64,000 bases of DNA from the NCBI GenBank assembly GCA_021469345.1, contig GCA_021469345.1_3049.1, one strand, 5' to 3'. Positions 6,974 to 16,672 of the stretch are shown here, piece by piece. Each line of letters begins with the position of its first letter. Position 1 is the first letter of the stretch. Below the pieces are notes generated by a model. It was not told where the DNA came from. It made no database searches and worked only from the letters and a program-made list of their open reading frames with translations. The DNA comes from a phage. The position numbers and the translations under genes are program-made.

Positions 6974-7435
6974 ATGATTATTAATGAAAACTCTTGGCAC
7001 TATAAATTATTCAAATTGTTTAACGATGAATGGCAACGACCTAAGACGCTGTGCGCATACTTTTGGTCTATTGTTATCCCTACATTTTTCGTTTCTTTTT
7101 TCGGATGTACTATACTCGTAGGTCTAACTATCATCTGCGCAGAAATCATGCAGAAATGGCTTATTTTTGGTAGTTTATGGACTCTTATTCCATCAGCATT
7201 TATACTTGCTATTTTGCTTGTTTTACTTATTATTGGTTCATTTGTTATTCCTGCACAACTGCATGAAAAATATAAAGATTATAAATGGAAAAAGGATTAT
7301 GCTTTACATGTAGAAAATATTGATAGGGCGTATAAAGGTTTACCTCCTATTCAACCCAAGAAATCTATTATCGTCGAATTTTTAAAAGCTCGTAAAGCTA
7401 AAGTATGTCCTGTTATTGAATATAAGGCTGAATGA
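6974..7435 (+). CDS. integral membrane protein (multi-TM)
   Basis: 153 aa; long hydrophobic stretches (FWSIVIPTFFVSFFGCTILVGL..., LILAILLVLLIIGSFVIPA). Confidence 0.6.
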   Translation: MIINENSWHYKLFKLFNDEWQRPKTLCAYFWSIVIPTFFVSFFGCTILVGLTIICAEIMQKWLIFGSLWTLIPSAFILAILLVLLIIGSFVIPAQLHEKYKDYKWKKDYALHVENIDRAYKGLPPIQPKKSIIVEFLKARKAKVCPVIEYKAE

Positions 7436-8445
7436 TGAAAACAGTAATGAAAAGCTATTTTGGTAGTTATCTTTATGGAACTTCTACCCCAGAATCTGAT
7501 GTAGATTTTAAAGAAATCTTTGTTCCTCCTGCTCGTGATATTCTTATTGGAAATGTTAAAGAGCACATGAGTAAAAACACTAACAACACATCATCTAAAA
7601 ACACTAAAGATGATATTGACCATGAACTATACAGTCTTAAATATTTCTTTAAATTAGCAGCAGATGGTGAAACTATAGCATTGGATATGCTTCACACTCC
7701 ACCTGAACTAGTGGTTAAATCTGATTTGCCTGATGTGTGGAAGTTTATTCAAGACAACCGTTCTCGTTTTTATACGACTAGCATGAAATCATATTTAGGA
7801 TATGTCCGCAAGCAGGCTTCTAAATACGGTGTCAAGGGTTCTCGTTTGGCTGCATTACGCGATGTATTGAAAGTAGTTAATCAAATCCCTGAGCAATGGG
7901 TTGATTACCAAGAAGACGGTTCCATTAAGCAGCGTCGTACTAAAGTTGAAGATATTAAGCATCGTCTTCCAGAAAACGAATTCTGTGAATGGGTGTTCCA
8001 TAATCATGAGAAAACAGGCCCGCAAACGTTCTACACTGTGTTGGGTCGTAAATATCAGACAACGCTTTCTCTTATTGAGCTTAAGCAGTCACTGAACAAA
8101 TTAGATGCTGAATATGGTGAACGTGCTCGTAAGGCCGAAGCCAATGAAGGCATTGACTGGAAAGCTCTGAGTCATGCTTGTCGTGGTGGACTTCAACTAT
8201 TGGAAATTTACAAAACTGGTGACTTGGTTTATCCACTTCAAGACGCTCCATTTATTCTCGACGTGAAGTTGGGTAAACATCCATTTAAAACGGTTCAAGA
8301 GTTTTTGGAAGATGTGGTTGATCAAGTAGAAGCAGCATCTACTGAAGCTTCTAAGAACGGTATGCAGCAAAAAGTAGACATGAGTTTCTGGGATGACTTC
8401 CTTGAGAAGGTGTATCTCGAAAACCATCGAAGTTATTATAAATGA
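7432..8445 (+). CDS. predicted nucleotidyltransferase (Pol-beta superfamily fold)
   Basis: 337 aa; N-terminal GS-x-YGTSTPESDVDF matches the [GS]-x9-13-D-x-[DE] NTase signature. Confidence 0.65.
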   Translation: MMKTVMKSYFGSYLYGTSTPESDVDFKEIFVPPARDILIGNVKEHMSKNTNNTSSKNTKDDIDHELYSLKYFFKLAADGETIALDMLHTPPELVVKSDLPDVWKFIQDNRSRFYTTSMKSYLGYVRKQASKYGVKGSRLAALRDVLKVVNQIPEQWVDYQEDGSIKQRRTKVEDIKHRLPENEFCEWVFHNHEKTGPQTFYTVLGRKYQTTLSLIELKQSLNKLDAEYGERARKAEANEGIDWKALSHACRGGLQLLEIYKTGDLVYPLQDAPFILDVKLGKHPFKTVQEFLEDVVDQVEAASTEASKNGMQQKVDMSFWDDFLEKVYLENHRSYYK

Positions 8446-8447
8446 TA

Positions 8448-8471
8448 GGGAGCCTTCGGGCTCCTTTTTTT
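8448..8471 (+). terminator. intrinsic terminator
   Basis: GGGAGCC-TTCG-GGCTCC hairpin then TTTTTTT. Confidence 0.65.
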
Positions 8472-8495
8472 ATTTCAAAAATTTTTCACAAAACT

Positions 8496-8525
8496 GTTTA
8501 CAAGCATAAAGCTTTATGGTACTAT
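8496..8525 (+). promoter_or_regulatory. early promoter (GTTTAC-N18-TGgTACTAT), member of repeated promoter family
   Basis: GTTTAC 8496-8501; TACTAT 8520-8525; conserved AAAATTTTTCACAAAACT upstream. Confidence 0.55.
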
Positions 8526-8561
8526 ACAACTATCAAAACAAACACTTAAACGGAAAACAAA

Positions 8562-8711
8562 ATGAAAATTACACCAATTGAAGTAAAAAAGTTGATTGAT
8601 ACAGAAGAAATTTCAGAGTGTTTTGAAAGTTTCTTAGAAGACGCAACTGAAGATAACGCGGTTTATCTTGCCCAGAAAATTATCGAAACTTATTTGGAGA
8701 AGAATCAATGA
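8562..8711 (+). CDS. hypothetical small acidic protein (49 aa)
   Basis: ATG 8562; stop overlaps next start (ATGA). Confidence 0.35.
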   Translation: MKITPIEVKKLIDTEEISECFESFLEDATEDNAVYLAQKIIETYLEKNQ

Positions 8712-8971
8712 CAGTTTACGTAGATGTTTTAATGAATCATGGATGGAAACTTCGCGGTCATCCAACTAAAAATTGTCATATGTTCACTGATGGAGATATT
8801 GAAGAGCTTCACGAAATGGCAGAAGCAATAGGAATGAAACGTTCTTGGTTTCAAGATAAACGCATTAAACATTATGACTTACACGCTCGGCGACGCCAAA
8901 AAGCTGTAGAACTTGGAGCTGTAGAAGTATCTCGTCGCGAAGCAGTAAAAATTTGGCAAACATTAAAATAA
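8708..8971 (+). CDS. hypothetical protein
   Basis: 87-aa ORF; MTVYVDVLMNHGWKLRGHPTKNCHMFTDGD... Confidence 0.55.
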   Translation: MTVYVDVLMNHGWKLRGHPTKNCHMFTDGDIEELHEMAEAIGMKRSWFQDKRIKHYDLHARRRQKAVELGAVEVSRREAVKIWQTLK

Positions 8972-8974
8972 ATT

Positions 8975-9004
8975 GTTTACAGCAGGGTAGTAGTGTGATA
9001 CTAT
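8975..9004 (+). promoter_or_regulatory. early promoter (GTTTAC-N18-TGaTACTAT)
   Basis: GTTTAC 8975-8980, TACTAT 8999-9004. Confidence 0.5.
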
Positions 9005-9040
9005 TACCCTATCAAAACAAATGTGAAATTGGAGAATAAA

Positions 9041-10009
9041 ATGAAAACTGTAACTATCAATAAGGGTATCTACTTCGGTAAAGAAATCTCTGGAACTTTT
9101 GAGCTCTTAGGTGAATGGTTCCCAGATAATGCTCCGGTAGATGCACAAGGAGATGGTAAAGTTTTTGTTGAAATTGACGGTAAACGTCGCGGTGTTTGGG
9201 TTTACAAATCAGACATTTCATATGATGGTGTAAAAGTTGAAGAAGTTAAAGAATCGTATGAAGATATGAAAACCCGCATTAATAAAAGATTTAATGTTAT
9301 GGGAATGATGACGAATGGTATTATTAATGGAAATATTCGTTCATTAATTATCTCTGGCGCAGCAGGTATTGGTAAAACGTATTCTTTAGATAAAGCTTTA
9401 AATAAAGCAAATGATAATGGATACATTGAATATAAAAGCATTAATGGTAAAATCTCTGGTATCGGTCTTTATGAACAGCTCTGGAATAATCGTGAAGAGA
9501 ATTCTGTCCTTTTGATTGATGATGTGGATGTTTTCTCTGATATGGACATTCTTAATCTTCTAAAAGCCGCTCTGGACACTGGAGAGACCCGTAAAGTCTG
9601 CTGGAGCACTGCATCTTCTTACTTAGAAGAAAAAGGCATTGACCGTGAGTTTGAATTTAAAGGAACGATTGTTTTTATCACAAACGTTGACATTGACCGC
9701 GAATTAGACCGCGGTACTAAACTTGCTCCACATTTACAAGCATTAGTGTCCCGCTCAGTTTATTTGGATTTGGGTGTTCACACCAATGAAGAAATTATGG
9801 TCAGGGTTGAAGATGTTATTCTTTCAACTGACATGATGCAAAAGCGCGGTCTTTCTGATGAAGAAACTTATAAAGCATTATCATGGATGAAAGTTAATGT
9901 TAATCGTTTACGCAATGTTTCACTGCGTACTGCTCTTTATCTTGCTGACTTTATTATGACCGACAAAAATCATTGGGAAGAAATTGCTGAAACGGTATTA
10001 TTAAAATGA
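9041..10009 (+). CDS. AAA+ family ATPase
   Basis: 322 aa from ATG 9041 (RBS GGAG); Walker A GAAGIGKT, Walker B LLIDDVD, sensor-1 like FITNVD. Confidence 0.7.
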   Translation: MKTVTINKGIYFGKEISGTFELLGEWFPDNAPVDAQGDGKVFVEIDGKRRGVWVYKSDISYDGVKVEEVKESYEDMKTRINKRFNVMGMMTNGIINGNIRSLIISGAAGIGKTYSLDKALNKANDNGYIEYKSINGKISGIGLYEQLWNNREENSVLLIDDVDVFSDMDILNLLKAALDTGETRKVCWSTASSYLEEKGIDREFEFKGTIVFITNVDIDRELDRGTKLAPHLQALVSRSVYLDLGVHTNEEIMVRVEDVILSTDMMQKRGLSDEETYKALSWMKVNVNRLRNVSLRTALYLADFIMTDKNHWEEIAETVLLK

Positions 10010-10725
10010 AAAAATATTTTACTATCTATAAAACTGAAATATTAAATTTAAAGACAGGTATTAAGAAATACTATTATGGTCGACATATAACTAATAACAT
10101 CAATGATTCGTATGTTGGTAGTGGAAATTATATAGAACGTGTAAAAGTGTCAAATGACCACATATTATCAAAAACGGTTTTAGAAGTTTTTGATAATTAT
10201 GATAAAATGGTACAAGCTGAAATATTATATATCATGGCAGGTAAATTGAAATATGGAAAAAACTGTGTTAACCTGTCATACGGGGGTGAAGGAGGAAAGG
10301 TTGCAGATGAAACTAGGATAAAATGCAAAAAGCATTCTATAAATTTATGGAAAAATCCTAATCATATACAGCATATGAAGAAAAAGATGAAAGAGGTCAC
10401 ATCCACGCCGGAAGCTAAATTAAACACTTCAATAAAAACTTCGCAACGATATAAGGACCCAGTTTTTGTTAGAAAAGTTAGTAATATTATTAAAAAGAAA
10501 CTAAGCAATCCTACAGTAAAAGAAAAGCATATTAATGGAATTAAAGCTGCAAAGCGTTCTCATTTAACTATATGGCAGTATGAAGATGAATTATTCGAGC
10601 TTTGGAAAGAAACTAAATATGGATGGAGAAAATTTACAAAGGAAGCTATAAAACACGGATATCCAAATGAACCGTATCGTAGTATGGTATCAACTTTTCA
10701 GAAAAGACATTTAGAAGAATCCTAA
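10006..10725 (+). CDS. GIY-YIG family homing endonuclease (Seg-like)
   Basis: 239 aa; N-terminal YFTIYKTEILNLKTGIKKYYYGRH...YVGSG matches GIY-x10-YIG module; basic C-terminal region. Confidence 0.75.
   Translation: MKKYFTIYKTEILNLKTGIKKYYYGRHITNNINDSYVGSGNYIERVKVSNDHILSKTVLEVFDNYDKMVQAEILYIMAGKLKYGKNCVNLSYGGEGGKVADETRIKCKKHSINLWKNPNHIQHMKKKMKEVTSTPEAKLNTSIKTSQRYKDPVFVRKVSNIIKKKLSNPTVKEKHINGIKAAKRSHLTIWQYEDELFELWKETKYGWRKFTKEAIKHGYPNEPYRSMVSTFQKRHLEES
10006..10725 (+). mobile_element. free-standing homing endonuclease gene (seg-type)
   Basis: GIY-YIG ORF embedded between accessory genes, ATGA-coupled to the upstream ATPase gene. Confidence 0.55.
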
Positions 10726-11170: not shown

Positions 11171-11443
11171 ATGAACGCTAAAGATATTTTCAACCTGGTA
11201 AATTACAACGATGGTAAATTTAAATCTGAAGCACAAAGCAAGTTCTTTAATGACATCTCAATCGGAGGTGAAATCACTGTTGATGGAGGACAAATTTACA
11301 AATCCCGTTGGAATTGGATCGTTATTATCGATGAGATTGGTATTGTAGAAATTTATAAAAATACGAAAATCGTGCATTACACTGGTCTCGTGATACTAAC
11401 GAACAGTACAAAAAGGATAAAGCATCTAAATTATCTCGTGTAA
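11171..11443 (+). CDS. hypothetical protein
   Basis: 90-aa ORF, RBS GGAGGA. Confidence 0.5.
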   Translation: MNAKDIFNLVNYNDGKFKSEAQSKFFNDISIGGEITVDGGQIYKSRWNWIVIIDEIGIVEIYKNTKIVHYTGLVILTNSTKRIKHLNYLV

Positions 11444-11478
11444 CTCAAGAAGATATTGAGTTCATCAAGAAAGATATT

Positions 11479-11694
11479 TTGATGTATGATAACTTAATTG
11501 CTGAAGAGCAAGCTGTTATTGATAAATTTGATGAGATTAAAGCTTCTCGTGAAATTCCTGATTTTATGAAAGAATCAGTAAATGAACGATACACTCTCAT
11601 TTCAGAGCGTATTGAAACTTACAAAAAGCAAAGAGCTGAACGCCAAAATACTCTTCGGAAGTTTGAAGAACGGTTAAAGACGGTACTCGCATAA
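11479..11694 (+). CDS. hypothetical small protein
   Basis: 71-aa ORF. Confidence 0.45.
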   Translation: MMYDNLIAEEQAVIDKFDEIKASREIPDFMKESVNERYTLISERIETYKKQRAERQNTLRKFEERLKTVLA

Positions 11695-11749: not shown

Positions 11750-11989
11750 ATGAAACAGTTGATAATTAAAAGATTGAATTTATTGATATGTTGTTTATGT
11801 ATAGTAATTGCATATGGTTATTACGCAATTAATGATTATATGCATTATAAAGATTATGATGTTACTGTAGTTAAACCCTTACAGGAACTCAAGGAAAGGG
11901 GTCTAGTTTATCGTTTATTGCTGTATATGAACTCAAAGACGGTTATAGATTTAGCGAATATATTTCGCCAGAGATGTATTCTTCAATAG
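11750..11989 (+). CDS. small membrane protein
   Basis: 79 aa, hydrophobic N-terminus LLICCLCIVIAYGYYAI. Confidence 0.4.
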   Translation: MKQLIIKRLNLLICCLCIVIAYGYYAINDYMHYKDYDVTVVKPLQELKERGLVYRLLLYMNSKTVIDLANIFRQRCILQ

Positions 11990-12156
11990 AAAAAGGTGAT
12001 AATATTACTGTAAGTTTACGTCCTTTCGACGTAAAACAGACATTGTTTGATAATATTGTTTGGTTCTTTGGAATGGTATTAGTTCAATCTATATGTGGTG
12101 CTTATATAGTCTGTTCCATCTTATTCTGTATATTTAGTAAAATTGAAATTGAGTGA
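11974..12156 (+). CDS. small membrane protein (possibly frameshifted continuation of previous ORF)
   Basis: 60 aa, TM segment VWFFGMVLVQSICGAYIVCSILFCIF; overlaps previous ORF in another frame. Confidence 0.35.
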   Translation: MYSSIEKGDNITVSLRPFDVKQTLFDNIVWFFGMVLVQSICGAYIVCSILFCIFSKIEIE

Positions 12157-12163
12157 GGAAAAT

Positions 12164-13051
12164 ATGTCAGTAGTAATTAATAATGTCAATGCAGTAATTA
12201 AATCTTTAGTTAATAAAAAATCAAATGAATGGACTGTACTTCAACACGACGAGTCAGATAAATTTTTTCATAAATTTAACCCAGTACTAAATTTAAATGT
12301 TATTGATAAAGATGTTCACGCCGAAATTTTAGATAAGTTTAAAGTTGATATTGGATTTGGATTAGAAAAACATTTACAACGAACAAACGGGTCTGGAATG
12401 CTTTTATCTAATCGCATTATGAAAGCCCTTAATAAAATTGGAGCATTGTCTCGTATTAACGCGAGTGAAATCCTTCGTAATTATAATAAAGGATATGACC
12501 TTTATGGTCGACTAATGCCGAAATTATCATTTGACCAAATGATCGCAGATTTGTGGGAAAATCAACGACGATTATTAGCATTAGGCGCTCGATTGGCTAA
12601 AGGTCTAGATAAACAAATGATTTTTAAAACTAATAATACAGAAGACCTTAAATGCTTTAAATTTAGCACTCGTGGAGATGATTATTACGTCAGAGCTCAC
12701 TCTACAGATTATGCTAATATGGGTCATCATCTCTGTTTAGCTTTTGAAGTTTTAAAAGAAGCCGGAACATTAGAATATGTGTCTGGTGCAAAATGCCCTA
12801 TTGGTTCAAGTTGTATTTTAATTTATCGCCCGGATGAATCCAGTTCAACTAAATTGCCTACAAAACCTGTACCAGTTCGCAGTAACGAAAAACATTCTGA
12901 ACAAATTGATTATTTTAATAAGCAAATTGAAGAGCTGAATATTTCTATTCAACAATATGACGATGAAATTTTCAGACTATCTGGACTGAGTAGTAAAGCT
13001 AAATCTGAGCGTGAAAAGTTAATTAAAATTGTTGATTTACTTAAATCTTAA
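12164..13051 (+). CDS. paralog 1 of four tandem proteins with C-terminal coiled coil
   Basis: 295 aa from ATG 12164 (RBS GAGGAA); C-terminal heptad-like EELNISIQQYDDEIFRL... Confidence 0.6.
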   Translation: MSVVINNVNAVIKSLVNKKSNEWTVLQHDESDKFFHKFNPVLNLNVIDKDVHAEILDKFKVDIGFGLEKHLQRTNGSGMLLSNRIMKALNKIGALSRINASEILRNYNKGYDLYGRLMPKLSFDQMIADLWENQRRLLALGARLAKGLDKQMIFKTNNTEDLKCFKFSTRGDDYYVRAHSTDYANMGHHLCLAFEVLKEAGTLEYVSGAKCPIGSSCILIYRPDESSSTKLPTKPVPVRSNEKHSEQIDYFNKQIEELNISIQQYDDEIFRLSGLSSKAKSEREKLIKIVDLLKS

Positions 13052-13059
13052 GGAACACT

Positions 13060-14088
13060 ATGAAAACTCGTTCTCAAATTGAAGATATGGTTCGTAATGC
13101 CAGTTATACTCGTGATGTTATGACATTTTTGTGTGAAAATAATTTAGACCCTGATAAAGTTAATCGTGTTATTCATCACTTTAAGTATACGAATAGCAGT
13201 GAATGGGTGCGTAATTTTAGTAAAGCAGGGTATATTACACAAATGACTGCTCGTGAACAGCTCACCGATTTCTGTAAAACTATTGATTATAAAAATCCTT
13301 TGATTGTTCAAGGCGTTGGTCAGAGTAAGGTTGATTTATCAACAGGATTTTTTAATCCAAATCATTATCGTCTTGAATGGAGATTTATTGCTCTATTCCG
13401 TAAACAATTAAAGCAAATTTTGTCTACTGCTAGTCGATTAAAAGGTTCTGATATTAACTTAAAGAATCTGAAATTTGATGGTTATACTCTTCAGATGGAA
13501 GTAAGACCGTTAAAAGAAAATAATAGAACTGCACGAATTAGCTTTAAGCCTAATACAAAAAATTCTCTTTCAATTTGTGAATGCCTTAAATCACAGTTGA
13601 CAGAAGCATTTAAGTATATGGATGTTGTTGCTGCTGTTCAATCTAAGATTTTACCTCGTTTTGAGCGAAATTGGGAACATACAACAACGTATGAACTTGA
13701 TATGATCGTTTCATTTAAATACGATTTTTTGAGAAAGGACGAAGTCACGCAAGAGAAAAAGCAGGAAGTACAAGATAACTTAAATTTAAATTTATCTAAT
13801 TACTTATCAAACGATCCTAAATTTTGGATGTATAGTTCAGGTAATAAAGATGCATGGAAATTCAATAAAGTGAATTTTCTTCCTATTGAAAATCCGAGTC
13901 TTAAACCTGTTGAAAAATGGCACGCGGATGCGATTGAGAAGTCCCTTAAGGCAGTAGATGATGAACTCGTTAAAGCGACCAATGAAGTGCTAAAAGCTGA
14001 AAAGGTGTTAGAACAAGCTCAGTCAAGGGTTCAAAATCTGACAAAGCAACGTTCTAAACTGAACAATGCACTAAATGCACTAAACTAG
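13060..14088 (+). CDS. paralog 2 of four tandem proteins with C-terminal coiled coil
   Basis: 342 aa; FRKQLKQILSTASRLKG resembles FRSFTKQILKSASKLCYG of the next gene. Confidence 0.6.
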   Translation: MKTRSQIEDMVRNASYTRDVMTFLCENNLDPDKVNRVIHHFKYTNSSEWVRNFSKAGYITQMTAREQLTDFCKTIDYKNPLIVQGVGQSKVDLSTGFFNPNHYRLEWRFIALFRKQLKQILSTASRLKGSDINLKNLKFDGYTLQMEVRPLKENNRTARISFKPNTKNSLSICECLKSQLTEAFKYMDVVAAVQSKILPRFERNWEHTTTYELDMIVSFKYDFLRKDEVTQEKKQEVQDNLNLNLSNYLSNDPKFWMYSSGNKDAWKFNKVNFLPIENPSLKPVEKWHADAIEKSLKAVDDELVKATNEVLKAEKVLEQAQSRVQNLTKQRSKLNNALNALN

Positions 14089-14117
14089 TTTACTTTGCCA
14101 CAAGGATGTGGTATAAT
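14088..14117 (+). promoter_or_regulatory. early promoter (GTTTAC-N18-TGGTATAAT)
   Basis: GTTTAC 14088-14093, TATAAT 14112-14117; near-identical to the promoter at 59522. Confidence 0.6.
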
Positions 14118-14145
14118 GTTCTTACTTTCTACTGAGGAGATTAAT

Positions 14146-15147
14146 ATGACTCGTAACGAATATATCAAATCATTCAATAGAGTTATTGATGATAAAGCTA
14201 TACCGATGTTTGGCCAAAATAGCGTTCTTTCTATTATCAATCAATGGCTCAATAGTGTTGATGCAGGTATTGTTTCTTCTACTAAATTTATTCATGAAAT
14301 TCGTAAAATTTCTAGCCGTGTAGATAAAGATCTTATCAAGAAAACCTTTAAAGAGTCTCGTCTTCTTTCATATTTGGTTAATCGGGATATTCTTGGTAAT
14401 TTTGGGAAAGAAATTAAACGAACCAAAGATGTAGTAGGATACAATTGGTTCGGTGATGTTAATACTTATCATCTTAATACTAAAGAAGACCCTGAGAATA
14501 TTTTTACTCGTCGTTGGGTTAGTGAATTTAGGAGTTTTACGAAGCAAATTCTAAAATCAGCTTCTAAATTATGTTATGGCGATTATCGTCAAATTCATCC
14601 TTTAGCTGATGATATGATTATAGCAGAAGAATATGAACTTGATAAAAACAAAGTAGCTATTTTTATTAATTACAGATTTTTTACACCAGAAACTAACCAA
14701 AAGAACATTAATAAATTTTTCTCAATTGCTAGCACTATAACTCGTCAATTAGAGACCGCATTACTTTGTATGGAAACAGTAGAAAATATTCATACTTATC
14801 CTTTTAAGAATATATGCGGTTGGGAAGGATATAAACTCGTAATTAGCCTTCGTGAAGTGAAATGTGCTTATTCACCTACTGATAAAGAAATTTACCAACA
14901 AAAATGCGAAGAAATTGTGAATACTCCTAAAGAAGAAACTACCCTTGAGGAACTAATGGAATGTCTTGATGATTCGCCTGAACCGGTAGAAATTCGTCCA
15001 GAAGTTATTGCATTAGAAAAAGCTTATAAAGAAGCTCTAGAAATTTCTAATAAAGCACAGAAAGAATATGAGAAGGCTAAAAGGATTTGGGAAGAATCTG
15101 TCAATCGCTTGGATCGTCTTGAACAAGCTTTACAATTAATTAAGTAA
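14146..15147 (+). CDS. paralog 3 of four tandem proteins with C-terminal coiled coil
   Basis: 333 aa from ATG 14146 (RBS GAGGAG). Confidence 0.6.
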   Translation: MTRNEYIKSFNRVIDDKAIPMFGQNSVLSIINQWLNSVDAGIVSSTKFIHEIRKISSRVDKDLIKKTFKESRLLSYLVNRDILGNFGKEIKRTKDVVGYNWFGDVNTYHLNTKEDPENIFTRRWVSEFRSFTKQILKSASKLCYGDYRQIHPLADDMIIAEEYELDKNKVAIFINYRFFTPETNQKNINKFFSIASTITRQLETALLCMETVENIHTYPFKNICGWEGYKLVISLREVKCAYSPTDKEIYQQKCEEIVNTPKEETTLEELMECLDDSPEPVEIRPEVIALEKAYKEALEISNKAQKEYEKAKRIWEESVNRLDRLEQALQLIK

Positions 15148-15199
15148 TTTAAAGCCAAGGATGGCTCGGAGTATAAACTATTAACCAAGTGAGAAGAAC

Positions 15200-16132
15200 A
15201 TGAAAACTCGTAAACATTATATTGATTATTTTGACAGTCTTATTACTAAACACCGTAATTATCAGATCGGGCACAGAGCAGTAATCAATAATATTCTTCG
15301 TGATTTCCTTCAATATGTTGGTCAGGAAAATCATATCTGTAAAGATACTCAAAACGCTTATTCTCATTCGTTAGGCAATTTGCTTGAATGGTTTAAACGT
15401 TCTCGTATGTTATCTTCTACTGTAGCTCGTGATAACATTAAAAACTTTATGAAACCGAGCTTTATTAAATCTGTGACATCTAAAACCGATTTGGTTGAAT
15501 TTACTATTATTAACGATGTTAAAAAGACTCATTTAGCTGATTGGTTATCTACCATTCCTGAAACTAAATTTGCTGATAAATTTGCTTGTGAATTCAATAA
15601 ACAAGTTAATATGCTTTTTAAACATTCATGTAAATTATTCACAGGCGGCGATGATCGTACAAATAAAGTTCATGTTAAAGATTGGGTTACTGCAGTGTTC
15701 AAACCAACTGGTAATGGTAACGCATCATTATCAATTGATATCCAGGTTCCTTATTACTACTCACGTAATCTCGGTACTATGAAAGCCGAAGAAATTAATA
15801 AGCGCAACAAAACCGTTCGTTCTCTGTCTTATAAACTTCGCATGATGTTACAGACTATGGATGTTGTTGAAATGTTCGACGAAACCGAAGATAACGGTTC
15901 AATGTTATATAGTTCTCGTACCCGAATTAAGTTGAAGAACCCTAACGAGTATAAACTTAAGACTATTAAAGAACCTAAAGTAGAAAAGGTTGATAACTTG
16001 AGCGAAGAACGTGAATATCTCAATTCTCGTTTGATTGAAGTTGAAGCCCAAATTGCAGAACACACCAAATTGTTAAAAGCTCTTAATGCAAAAGCAAATG
16101 GTTTACGTAATGCTATTGAGGTATTGAAATGA
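15200..16132 (+). CDS. paralog 4 of four tandem proteins with C-terminal coiled coil
   Basis: 310 aa; C-terminal [42 protein letters not shown]. Confidence 0.6.
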   Translation: MKTRKHYIDYFDSLITKHRNYQIGHRAVINNILRDFLQYVGQENHICKDTQNAYSHSLGNLLEWFKRSRMLSSTVARDNIKNFMKPSFIKSVTSKTDLVEFTIINDVKKTHLADWLSTIPETKFADKFACEFNKQVNMLFKHSCKLFTGGDDRTNKVHVKDWVTAVFKPTGNGNASLSIDIQVPYYYSRNLGTMKAEEINKRNKTVRSLSYKLRMMLQTMDVVEMFDETEDNGSMLYSSRTRIKLKNPNEYKLKTIKEPKVEKVDNLSEEREYLNSRLIEVEAQIAEHTKLLKALNAKANGLRNAIEVLK

Positions 16133-16443
16133 AAAAGCGTCTATTAGAAGACATTGCAGCTTCAAGTAATTCCAGTTTAATTAAAATTATTATGGCCGGT
16201 GAAGAAGACGATTTGGAAATGCGTGGAAAGATTCATGGTTGTGATGATTATAGCCCTCCTGTTAATTGGGATTCTGTAATGGTCATGGTTAAACGTCGCG
16301 AAAGGGCTTCTAAAAACGTTCCTAATTGTCCTGAATGCGGTACTGAACAGGTACAATTAGTTCATTGGCAGACTAGTAATCTTCGTTATAAATGTCGCCA
16401 TTGTAAACACCGATTTGACCGAGAAGAAAATGACCAAGCGTAA
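16129..16443 (+). CDS. zinc-ribbon protein
   Basis: 104 aa; CPECG...(x19)...CRHCKH four-Cys ribbon. Confidence 0.55.
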
Positions 16444-16672
16444 AGAATATATGGAGGCTGCTGAAAAGGCAGTCCGTGAATTAGCAATAGCTTATTATAA
16501 TGAACATGGTAAATTTCCTGATAGATATAGCGTGCTTAAATCTGCTTTAACTCGTTCATATAAAAATATGCTATCAGAAGTAAGTGATATTATATACAAA
16601 CATAAAGAACAAACGGGCCAAAGTCTTGATTACGACGAGACTTTTAAACAAGTACTAGGAATTAAGGAATAA
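16430..16672 (+). CDS. hypothetical small protein
   Basis: ORF in-frame from TTG 16415; first ATG 16430; start uncertain. Confidence 0.45.

Follow-up and report, generated by a model that had tools for sequence, protein, structure and literature searches.

A predicted long-form RlaP nucleotidyltransferase and a separate AAA+ ATPase in the variable early region of a T-even phage

Positions 6974-10009 of a 64,000-nucleotide stretch of phage DNA (GenBank assembly GCA_021469345.1, contig GCA_021469345.1_3049.1; the whole stretch is referred to as the window) encode a small membrane protein, a Pol-beta-type nucleotidyltransferase (NTase) and an AAA+ ATPase, raising the question of whether these proteins act together and in what process the NTase takes part. 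A first-pass annotation, made from the DNA sequence alone, had treated the genes as one cluster in which no assigned function could be recognized, and had pointed to nucleic-acid repair or counter-defense as frequent roles of such proteins in phage accessory regions. The explanation that we consider probable is that the NTase is an RlaP-family enzyme contributing to tRNA repair, that the ATPase acts separately, and that the membrane protein gene is an incidental neighbor. The present analysis adds to previously published predictions a quantified genomic link of the long form of RlaP to Pnkp, RtcB and canonical RlaP, evidence for the mutual independence of the three genes, and a negative test of a Hailong-like pairing of the membrane protein and the NTase.

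Family and genomic context of the nucleotidyltransferase

The window has a G+C content of about 35%, carries every long open reading frame (ORF) on the + strand and, judging from its sequence, comes from a T-even (Tequatrovirus) phage. The 3.2 kb that contain the genes of interest are 96-98% identical to many sequenced T-even phages and each ORF in them matches a PHROG family (E values of 1e-30 to 1e-166), so that these ORFs are not chance occurrences. In comparisons with the annotated T4 genome, the NTase (337 aa in its longer version) and the ATPase were each 98% identical to the products of nrdC.11 (NP_049709, the closest named relative) and nrdC.10, respectively, and are assigned here as the orthologs of these genes. 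Both T4 ORFs have already been catalogued: a 2006 comparison of T4-like genomes matched the nrdC.11 orthologs to the COG3541 NTases and the nrdC.10 orthologs to the AAA family (PMC1524935), and a December 2025 preprint placed T4 NrdC.11 in the RlaP family (PMC12776372). The genes are thus less anonymous than had been supposed at first, and the family and predicted role of the NTase have been published. The features that bear on the NTase are as follows.

6974..7435, + strand: small membrane protein, 153 aa, phrog_944 (PHROG E value 3.5e-50; ORF and hydropathy)
7435..8445, + strand: T4 nrdC.11 ortholog, predicted long-form RlaP-family (PF10127) Pol-beta NTase, 336 aa; alternative ATG at 7432 (337 aa)
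7462..7506, + strand: predicted NTase catalytic motif G10-S11 ... S21-D22-x-D24, from conservation in 78 homologs
7612-7620, + strand: predicted third acidic motif of the NTase, D60-x-D62, from conservation in 78 homologs

The start codon at 7435 yields a protein of 336 aa, the length of T4 NrdC.11, and is located 7 nt after AAGG; the protein contains FGSYLYGTSTPESDVDF. Residues 7-135 match the Pfam family RlaP (PF10127, described in Pfam as 'RNA repair pathway DNA polymerase beta family') with 42.2 bits, against a cutoff of 23 (E value 1e-10), and all 78 diverse homologs compared with Pfam (78/78) match RlaP and no other family. Among these homologs, which are full length and 34-54% identical, G10, S11, S21, D22, D24, N56 and D62 are invariant and D60 is conserved in at least 90%, and a profile comparison aligns the GS, SDxD and DDxD motifs with those of a canonical 254-aa RlaP; three strictly conserved Asp residues have been described for the RlaP family (PMC12776372). 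Exhaustive homology search with the NTase retrieved 3302 representative clusters of relatives. The AlphaFold2 (AF2) model, with a predicted local distance difference test (pLDDT) score of 94.4, shows an NTase core and a C-terminal half that is helical, along with a beta-rich insert (about residues 154-208), and the top Foldseek matches are all Pol-beta NTases (3c18, kanamycin NTase and Hailong HalB; probability 0.92-1.0). The C-terminal domain resembles HEPN-like helical bundles. PDB sequence searches with the NTase, with the 78-sequence profile and with canonical RlaP matched no PDB entry.

Together, these features point to a long-form RlaP-family Pol-beta NTase that shares with T4 NrdC.11 and the rest of the family the GS, DxD and DDxD motifs and may share with them the combination of an NTase domain with a C-terminal helical domain. 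Canonical RlaP differs in being about 250 aa long, compared to 336 aa here, the long form having the beta insert at about 154-208; in bacteria, canonical RlaP often adjoins an NrdC.11-like long form rather than being replaced by it. The original NTase call, made from the signature GS...SDVDF, was borne out, and neither of the two outcomes that had been named as speaking against it, the lack of an NTase fold in structure prediction or poor conservation of the catalytic Asp residues in homologs, was observed.

RNA repair was first discovered in T4, and a third predicted repair enzyme in every T-even genome makes the phage answer to nucleotide removal by RloC-type nucleases testable. The Pseudomonas enzymes PfRlaP and PaRlaP add 1-2 nucleoside monophosphates to the 3'-OH of RNA, prefer cleaved tRNA and work best with Mn2+, and the RlaP enzymes tested act on RNA, not on DNA or protein (PMC12776372). 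From these characterized enzymes we infer the activity of the phage NTase, and with it an RNA substrate and a role in repair: the GS/DxD/DDxD site, together with a divalent metal, would extend the 3'-OH of a broken RNA by one or two nucleotides without a template. In this capacity, the NTase most likely would complement PseT (polynucleotide kinase/phosphatase) and RNA ligase 1: where an RloC-type anticodon nuclease of the host has trimmed a tRNA, it would put the lost nucleotide back before ligation. According to a prediction made in a comparative jumbo-phage study, phage RlaP enzymes replace nucleotides removed by RloC ahead of ligation (PMC7824862), and an RNA 3'-end or tRNA-repair role has already been predicted by others for T4 NrdC.11. 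Our analysis likewise identifies RNA 3'-end nucleotide addition in support of phage tRNA repair as the most likely function of the NTase. Of the directions proposed in the first-pass annotation, RNA or tRNA repair against anticodon nucleases is the one favored by family membership and genomic context (PMC7824862, PMC12776372).

The genomic context of the cellular homologs was surveyed in 80 bacterial and archaeal loci encoding NTase relatives (32-53% identity, nearly all full length), in which the neighboring genes were clustered, the recurrent ones annotated and their occurrences counted, with ligases scored within 6 kb. A canonical RlaP paralog is present in 26 of the 80 loci, and in 24 of these it is immediately downstream on the same strand. 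A Pnkp-type kinase-phosphatase-ligase lies within 6 kb of the NTase gene in 8 loci, in five of which it ends about 15 nt or less from the NTase start, and RtcB is encoded in 11. With the two types taken together, 17 of the 80 loci have an RNA ligase within 6 kb; the corresponding fraction for a random gene is estimated at far less than 1%, on the assumption of one or no ligase copies per genome. The NrdC.11-type long form is tied to RNA-repair cassettes, in agreement with earlier reports (PMC1524935, PMC7824862, PMC12776372). The association with RNA ligases from which the RlaP name originates is found among the cellular homologs, not locally in the phage window. The occurrence of the long form next to Pnkp or RtcB and canonical RlaP strengthens the published prediction, and the tandem arrangement of two different RlaP forms suggests that they divide the labor.

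The most compact arrangement is a bacterial cassette of three nearly abutting genes on one strand, for a Pnkp-type kinase-phosphatase-ligase, a long, NrdC.11-like RlaP and a canonical RlaP (locus L217, 3338-7643; also loci L223, L186, L199 and L233), in some cases accompanied by RtcB. In distant phages, the NTase gene has NAD-salvage, SPFH, cytosine methylase and antiholin genes as neighbors; a functional link to these was considered and rejected, the arrangement reflecting ordinary T4-like synteny.

A more elaborate proposal is that the long RlaP is a dedicated third T4 tRNA-repair enzyme, whose beta insert would position the trimmed anticodon loop for refilling before sealing by Pnk and Rnl1, enabling T-even phages to defeat RloC-type nucleases, whose damage had been considered beyond repair. 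The cellular version of this pathway would then be the bacterial three-gene cassette described above, and NrdC.10 would still be a separate, unassigned phage AAA+ family. We put this forward tentatively, as a possibility with the odds against it.

The AAA+ ATPase

The second enzyme of the locus is the ATPase, represented by three features.

9041..10009, + strand: T4 nrdC.10 ortholog, AAA+ ATPase, 322 aa, phrog_1250; ORF open from GTG 9023
9356..9379, + strand: Walker A, G106-AAGIGK112-T113; G106, G109, G111 and K112 invariant in 28 members
9506..9529, + strand: Walker B, VLLID160-D161-V-D163; D160, D161 and D163 invariant in 28 members; DD, not DE

The start codon is almost certainly ATG 9041, which is preceded by GGAG and where the homologs and the PHROG begin, and not GTG 9023. 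In an alignment of 28 family members, with identity down to 29% and including jumbo phages and metagenomic viral contigs, the 'LN-LLKAALD' helix, R184, the sensor 1 residue N215, H231, R238 in 'SRS' and R296 are invariant in addition to the Walker residues. Walker A, Walker B, sensor 1, arginine finger and sensor 2 appear in the canonical AAA+ order, and the AF2 model (pLDDT 90.4) comprises a beta domain (residues 1-62), an alpha-beta-alpha AAA+ core, interrupted by a hairpin-like insert of about 30 residues before sensor 1, and a helical lid. Both fold and invariant motifs uphold the AAA+ call that had been based on GAAGIGKT and LLIDDVD. The family is found in 1312 phage records, from T4-like phages and some jumbo phages, with 55-60% identity between the coliphage and Aeromonas phage proteins; it is a genuine, highly conserved AAA+ family that has so far been seen in phages. 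T4 NrdC.10 (NP_049708) is the same protein in length and motifs, at 98% identity; the downstream neighbor differs, a homing endonuclease gene following the ATPase gene only here. The NrdC.10 gene is among the better-conserved of the functionally unassigned T4-like genes, and yet dispensable in the laboratory.

Searches of PDB with the ATPase profile matched the helicase loader 5he8 (E value 1.3e-4), RFC4/5 (about 5e-4) and Cdc6 (0.01), and in an hhalign comparison with the phage's own clamp loader gp44 the alignment extends from Walker A through the lid at 95.8% probability, with SRS placed on SRC. The ATPase shares with T4 gp44, the RFC subunits and the loaders DnaI/DnaC these profile matches, the SRS/SRC alignment, its SRS being an arginine-finger motif like the clamp-loader SRC, and the DD Walker B seen in 5he8. 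Clamp loaders do not have the insert that precedes sensor 1. A Walker B of the DD type is also present in DnaA and DnaI. Assignment to the MoxR chaperones was rejected: the ATPase lacks the combination of a helix-2 insert core with a partner gene for a VWA-domain protein.

From the DD Walker B and the loader-like profile we infer how the ATPase might act: these features weakly favor a loader or remodeller switched by ATP over a processive motor. Such an ATPase, separately transcribed and with an intact ATP site, would work early in infection, with a nucleic-acid or protein complex as its target.

Candidate partners were sought by clustering the neighbors of 34 distant homolog loci and by inspecting annotated contexts in Aeromonas, Vibrio and Agrobacterium phages. 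A superfamily 2 (SF2) helicase gene is located about 5 kb or less downstream of the ATPase homolog in 11 of the 34 loci, and RecA-like and methylase genes in some; the link with the helicase is a weak hint. The annotated contexts in the three phage groups all differ. In metagenomic viral contigs L077-L079 (about 12614-15406), a split SF2 helicase gene is located about 1.8 kb downstream of the ATPase homolog; the first part of this gene ends in a Hint/intein-like segment.

Genetic data and alternative explanations

Transposon-insertion data were available from the HIDEN-SEQ supplementary tables (bioRxiv 10.1101/2025.11.20.689424), of which those for T4 under reference, delta-rnlA and CFE299 conditions and for the phage Bas37 under reference and CFT073 conditions were used. 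In T4 on K-12, insertions were recovered at 65 of the 68 TA sites of nrdC.11 and at 69 of the 71 of nrdC.10, and both genes are non-essential (bioRxiv 10.1101/2025.11.20.689424). Bas37 has the layout of the window, with 94%, 97.6% and 98.4% identity for the membrane protein, the NTase and the ATPase, respectively; all three genes are non-essential and show no significant effect in CFT073 (bioRxiv 10.1101/2025.11.20.689424). The counter-defense role that had been raised for these genes left no sign in the published screens under any of the listed conditions. None of these conditions was set up for a nucleotide-excising nuclease, and the dispensability of the genes holds for the conditions used.

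Several observations weigh against our explanation. In the clinical strain CFE299, T4 needs pseT (log2 fold change -5.27, adjusted p 0), and does not need nrdC.11 (+0.15) or nrdC.10 (+0.42; adjusted p 1.0 for both; bioRxiv 10.1101/2025.11.20.689424). Because T4 in CFE299 requires pseT but not nrdC.11, the RNA-repair enzymes of the phage do not have the NTase as an obligatory partner; if involved in repair, it would be needed only against particular kinds of damage. In the phage, no RNA ligase or kinase gene adjoins the NTase gene; in T4, the genes for these enzymes presumably lie outside the approximately 64-kb stretch to which the window corresponds. The Pfam RlaP match is confined to the N-terminal core (residues 7-135), leaving the C-terminal half, including the beta insert, unmatched. 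For the ATPase, the fold is nearest to the MoxR, MCM and NtrC types while the sequence profile is nearest to the clamp loader, the helicase loader and Cdc6, conflicting signals that make the assignment to a clade ambiguous, and no partner conserved across contexts was found in the 34 distant loci and the three phage groups. Finally, the order of membrane protein, NTase and ATPase genes is conserved among T4-like phages of enterobacteria and Acinetobacter, which could reflect function rather than inherited synteny.

The first of these observations bears on the possibility that the NTase serves in something other than anticodon-loop repair, such as repair or maturation of the 3' (CCA) ends of phage or host tRNAs, RNA tagging, or nucleotidylation of proteins or small molecules. 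The dispensability of nrdC.11 where pseT is needed fits such a role, as do the low specificity of RlaP enzymes for NTP or RNA in vitro, the presence of the small-molecule NTases KNTase and ANT among the Foldseek neighbors together with the HEPN-like C-terminal bundle, and the beta insert and frequent canonical RlaP companion of the long form, which suggest a distinct sub-function. The cellular context, however, consists specifically of RNA-ligase repair cassettes, the RlaP enzymes tested were active on RNA and not on DNA or protein, and nothing in our data favors any particular alternative substrate. A different role of this kind is accordingly judged unlikely.

Still less probable is a single functional module made up of the membrane protein, the NTase and the ATPase, such as a counter-defense or repair machine whose components work jointly. 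The gene order membrane protein-NTase-ATPase is retained in enterobacterial and Acinetobacter T4-like phages, with identities down to 23-31%, 52% and 60%, respectively, and all three are early genes on the same strand. The first two also overlap stop-on-start, the TGA of the membrane protein gene (7433-7435) coinciding with two in-frame ATGs of the NTase gene, at 7432 and 7435, in 'gaATGATGAaa'; the overlap behind the translational coupling proposed from ATGATGA is present. The transcription signals between the NTase and ATPase genes nevertheless separate them.

8447..8466, + strand: strong intrinsic terminator directly 3' of the NTase stop codon, 8-bp stem with 5 GC pairs followed by a T run
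8496..8525, + strand: predicted T4-type early promoter GTTTACA-N17-TGgTACTAT, upstream of two small ORFs
8975..9004, + strand: second predicted T4-type early promoter, GTTTACA-N17-TGaTACTAT, driving the ATPase gene

Within the window, GTTTAC-N17-19-TAYWAT is found 16 times, on the + strand only, compared to 0.33 occurrences expected by chance; this motif is the reiterated T4 early promoter. The early promoter that had been noted ahead of the ATPase gene is real, but there are two, and the terminator had gone unmentioned. Gene content and linkage tell against a module as well. T4 has the NTase and the ATPase without the membrane protein gene; inserts of 0.1-3.3 kb with other genes separate the NTase and ATPase genes in relatives; and in Aeromonas-type and other distant T4-like phages, among them Vibrio relatives, the two are far apart, at more than 10 kb or about 40-105 kb on one genome. 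Many phages have only one of the two within 10 kb, and none of the 80 cellular NTase loci (0/80) carries the ATPase or the membrane protein gene. T4-like gene order is broadly inherited, so adjacency in itself weighs little. Given the separate transcription units, the varying gene content and the loss of linkage in distant relatives, we treat the adjacency as inherited synteny, and the single block of the first-pass annotation is better described as three genes that are neighbors and not one machine, all dispensable in Bas37, as are the NTase and ATPase genes in T4.

In the membrane protein, two long stretches (about residues 25-60 and 62-98) are hydrophobic, and a basic tail forms the C terminus; the hydropathy profile predicts 2-3 transmembrane segments and is consistent with the multi-spanning protein originally described. 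The protein is present in 847 phage records and evolves fast, with 27-50% identity where the NTase shows 65-84%. Its gene is probably a lineage-restricted, fast-evolving one that is merely co-transcribed with that of the NTase.

Hailong systems are pairs of a transmembrane effector and an NTase (HalA/HalB), and a Hailong-like pair here would consist of the membrane protein as the effector, restrained by oligodeoxyadenylate made by the NTase; alternatively, the NTase would be a phage decoy, making such oligonucleotides so that the channel of a host Hailong system stays closed. HalB is the nearest solved fold to the NTase, but sequence places the NTase in RlaP and not with HalB, and HalB may rank first only for the reason that the PfRlaP crystal structure is apparently absent from the PDB set searched, as indicated by the failure of canonical RlaP and the NTase profile to match any PDB sequence. 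The cellular NTase homologs adjoin Pnkp/RtcB ligases and canonical RlaP, not membrane proteins; the membrane protein is only 153 aa long, and a PDB sequence search found no solved chain similar to it, HalA included; and T4 lacks the membrane protein gene. Inactivation of HalB is toxic, whereas in Bas37 67 of the 70 TA sites of the NTase gene tolerate insertion with the membrane protein gene intact and itself non-essential; these transposon data show no toxic membrane effector unleashed by loss of the NTase, and membership in Hailong was rejected. Further differences are that we find no sequence-level relation to Hailong and that the pair here is carried by a lytic phage. On this evidence, either form of a Hailong-like function is highly improbable.

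The surrounding variable region

The locus is a piece of the variable early-gene region of T-even phages between mobD and nrdC, made up of independent accessory genes. In T4, the homing endonuclease gene mobD occupies the place of the membrane protein gene, the two small ORFs (49-aa and DUF4031) between nrdC.11 and nrdC.10 are lacking, and so is the homing endonuclease gene that here follows the ATPase gene (10006-10725); in another close relative, an additional gene, for an ADP-ribosylase, separates the NTase gene from the two small ORFs. These differences in gene content identify the region as mosaic. The elements described for it at the outset, namely the membrane protein, the gene overlap, the enzyme motifs, the small ORFs and the promoter, are all present, with small corrections only. 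An Rfam scan of the window found no RNA family, and for the NTase, the ATPase and the membrane protein neither PADLOC nor NCBIfam returned anything useful. The remaining features of the locus are the following.

8562..8711, + strand: 49-aa ORF, phrog_6888 (PHROG E value 5.5e-31), first gene of a two-gene variable cassette
8708..8971, + strand: 87-aa DUF4031 protein, PF13223, phrog_4887 (Pfam E value 1.1e-21; PHROG E value 2.8e-44), second gene of the cassette
10006..10725, + strand: free-standing homing endonuclease, 239 aa (phrog_314, E value 1.9e-30; PADLOC HEase, 5e-8)

The start of the DUF4031 ORF overlaps the end of the 49-aa ORF (ATGA). Some T4-like phages have the pair between the NTase and ATPase genes, with 94-100% identity; others have both ORFs, or just that for DUF4031, at a site about 2.7 kb downstream of the ATPase gene, with 45-76% identity. 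The two ORFs behave like a small mobile or variable cassette with an early promoter of its own.

The start of the homing endonuclease gene at 10006-10725 overlaps the stop codon of the ATPase gene (ATGA). This gene is present in only some close relatives, its counterpart in RB68 is annotated as segE, and the protein matched no Pfam family at an E value of 0.1 or less. It does not belong to a system that includes the ATPase.

Many nrdC.10 and nrdC.11 orthologs in GenBank and UniRef are labeled "thioredoxin". Neither protein matched a thioredoxin family in Pfam, and the label is therefore most likely an annotation artefact that spread from the neighboring nrdC gene.

Upstream of the membrane protein gene, the product of 6432-6971 matches the Pfam families T4_y05I_N (E value 7e-38) and T4_y05I_C (9e-23), described as "putative transcription factor"; in Bas37, this type of gene is present as a tandem pair, with 84% and 40% identity to the one in the window. 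Downstream, the orthologs of T4 nrdC.8 (11171-11691) and nrdC.7 (11750-12147) are each split by a frameshift, at about 11366 and about 11875, respectively. Compared to T4, Bas37 and four other close relatives, the splits are due to one 4-bp deletion (AATA) and one 1-bp deletion, and the two genes are either true pseudogenes or products of sequence errors. In Bas37, nrdC.8 corresponds to bas37_0203, which has been reported to inhibit Druantia type III. Further along, 16430-16669 encodes the ortholog of T4 nrdC.1, at 98.8% identity. Because nrdC.1 was reported in a 2025 preprint as inhibiting the defense system Septu, the mobD-nrdC region has proven anti-defense genes close to the locus described here.

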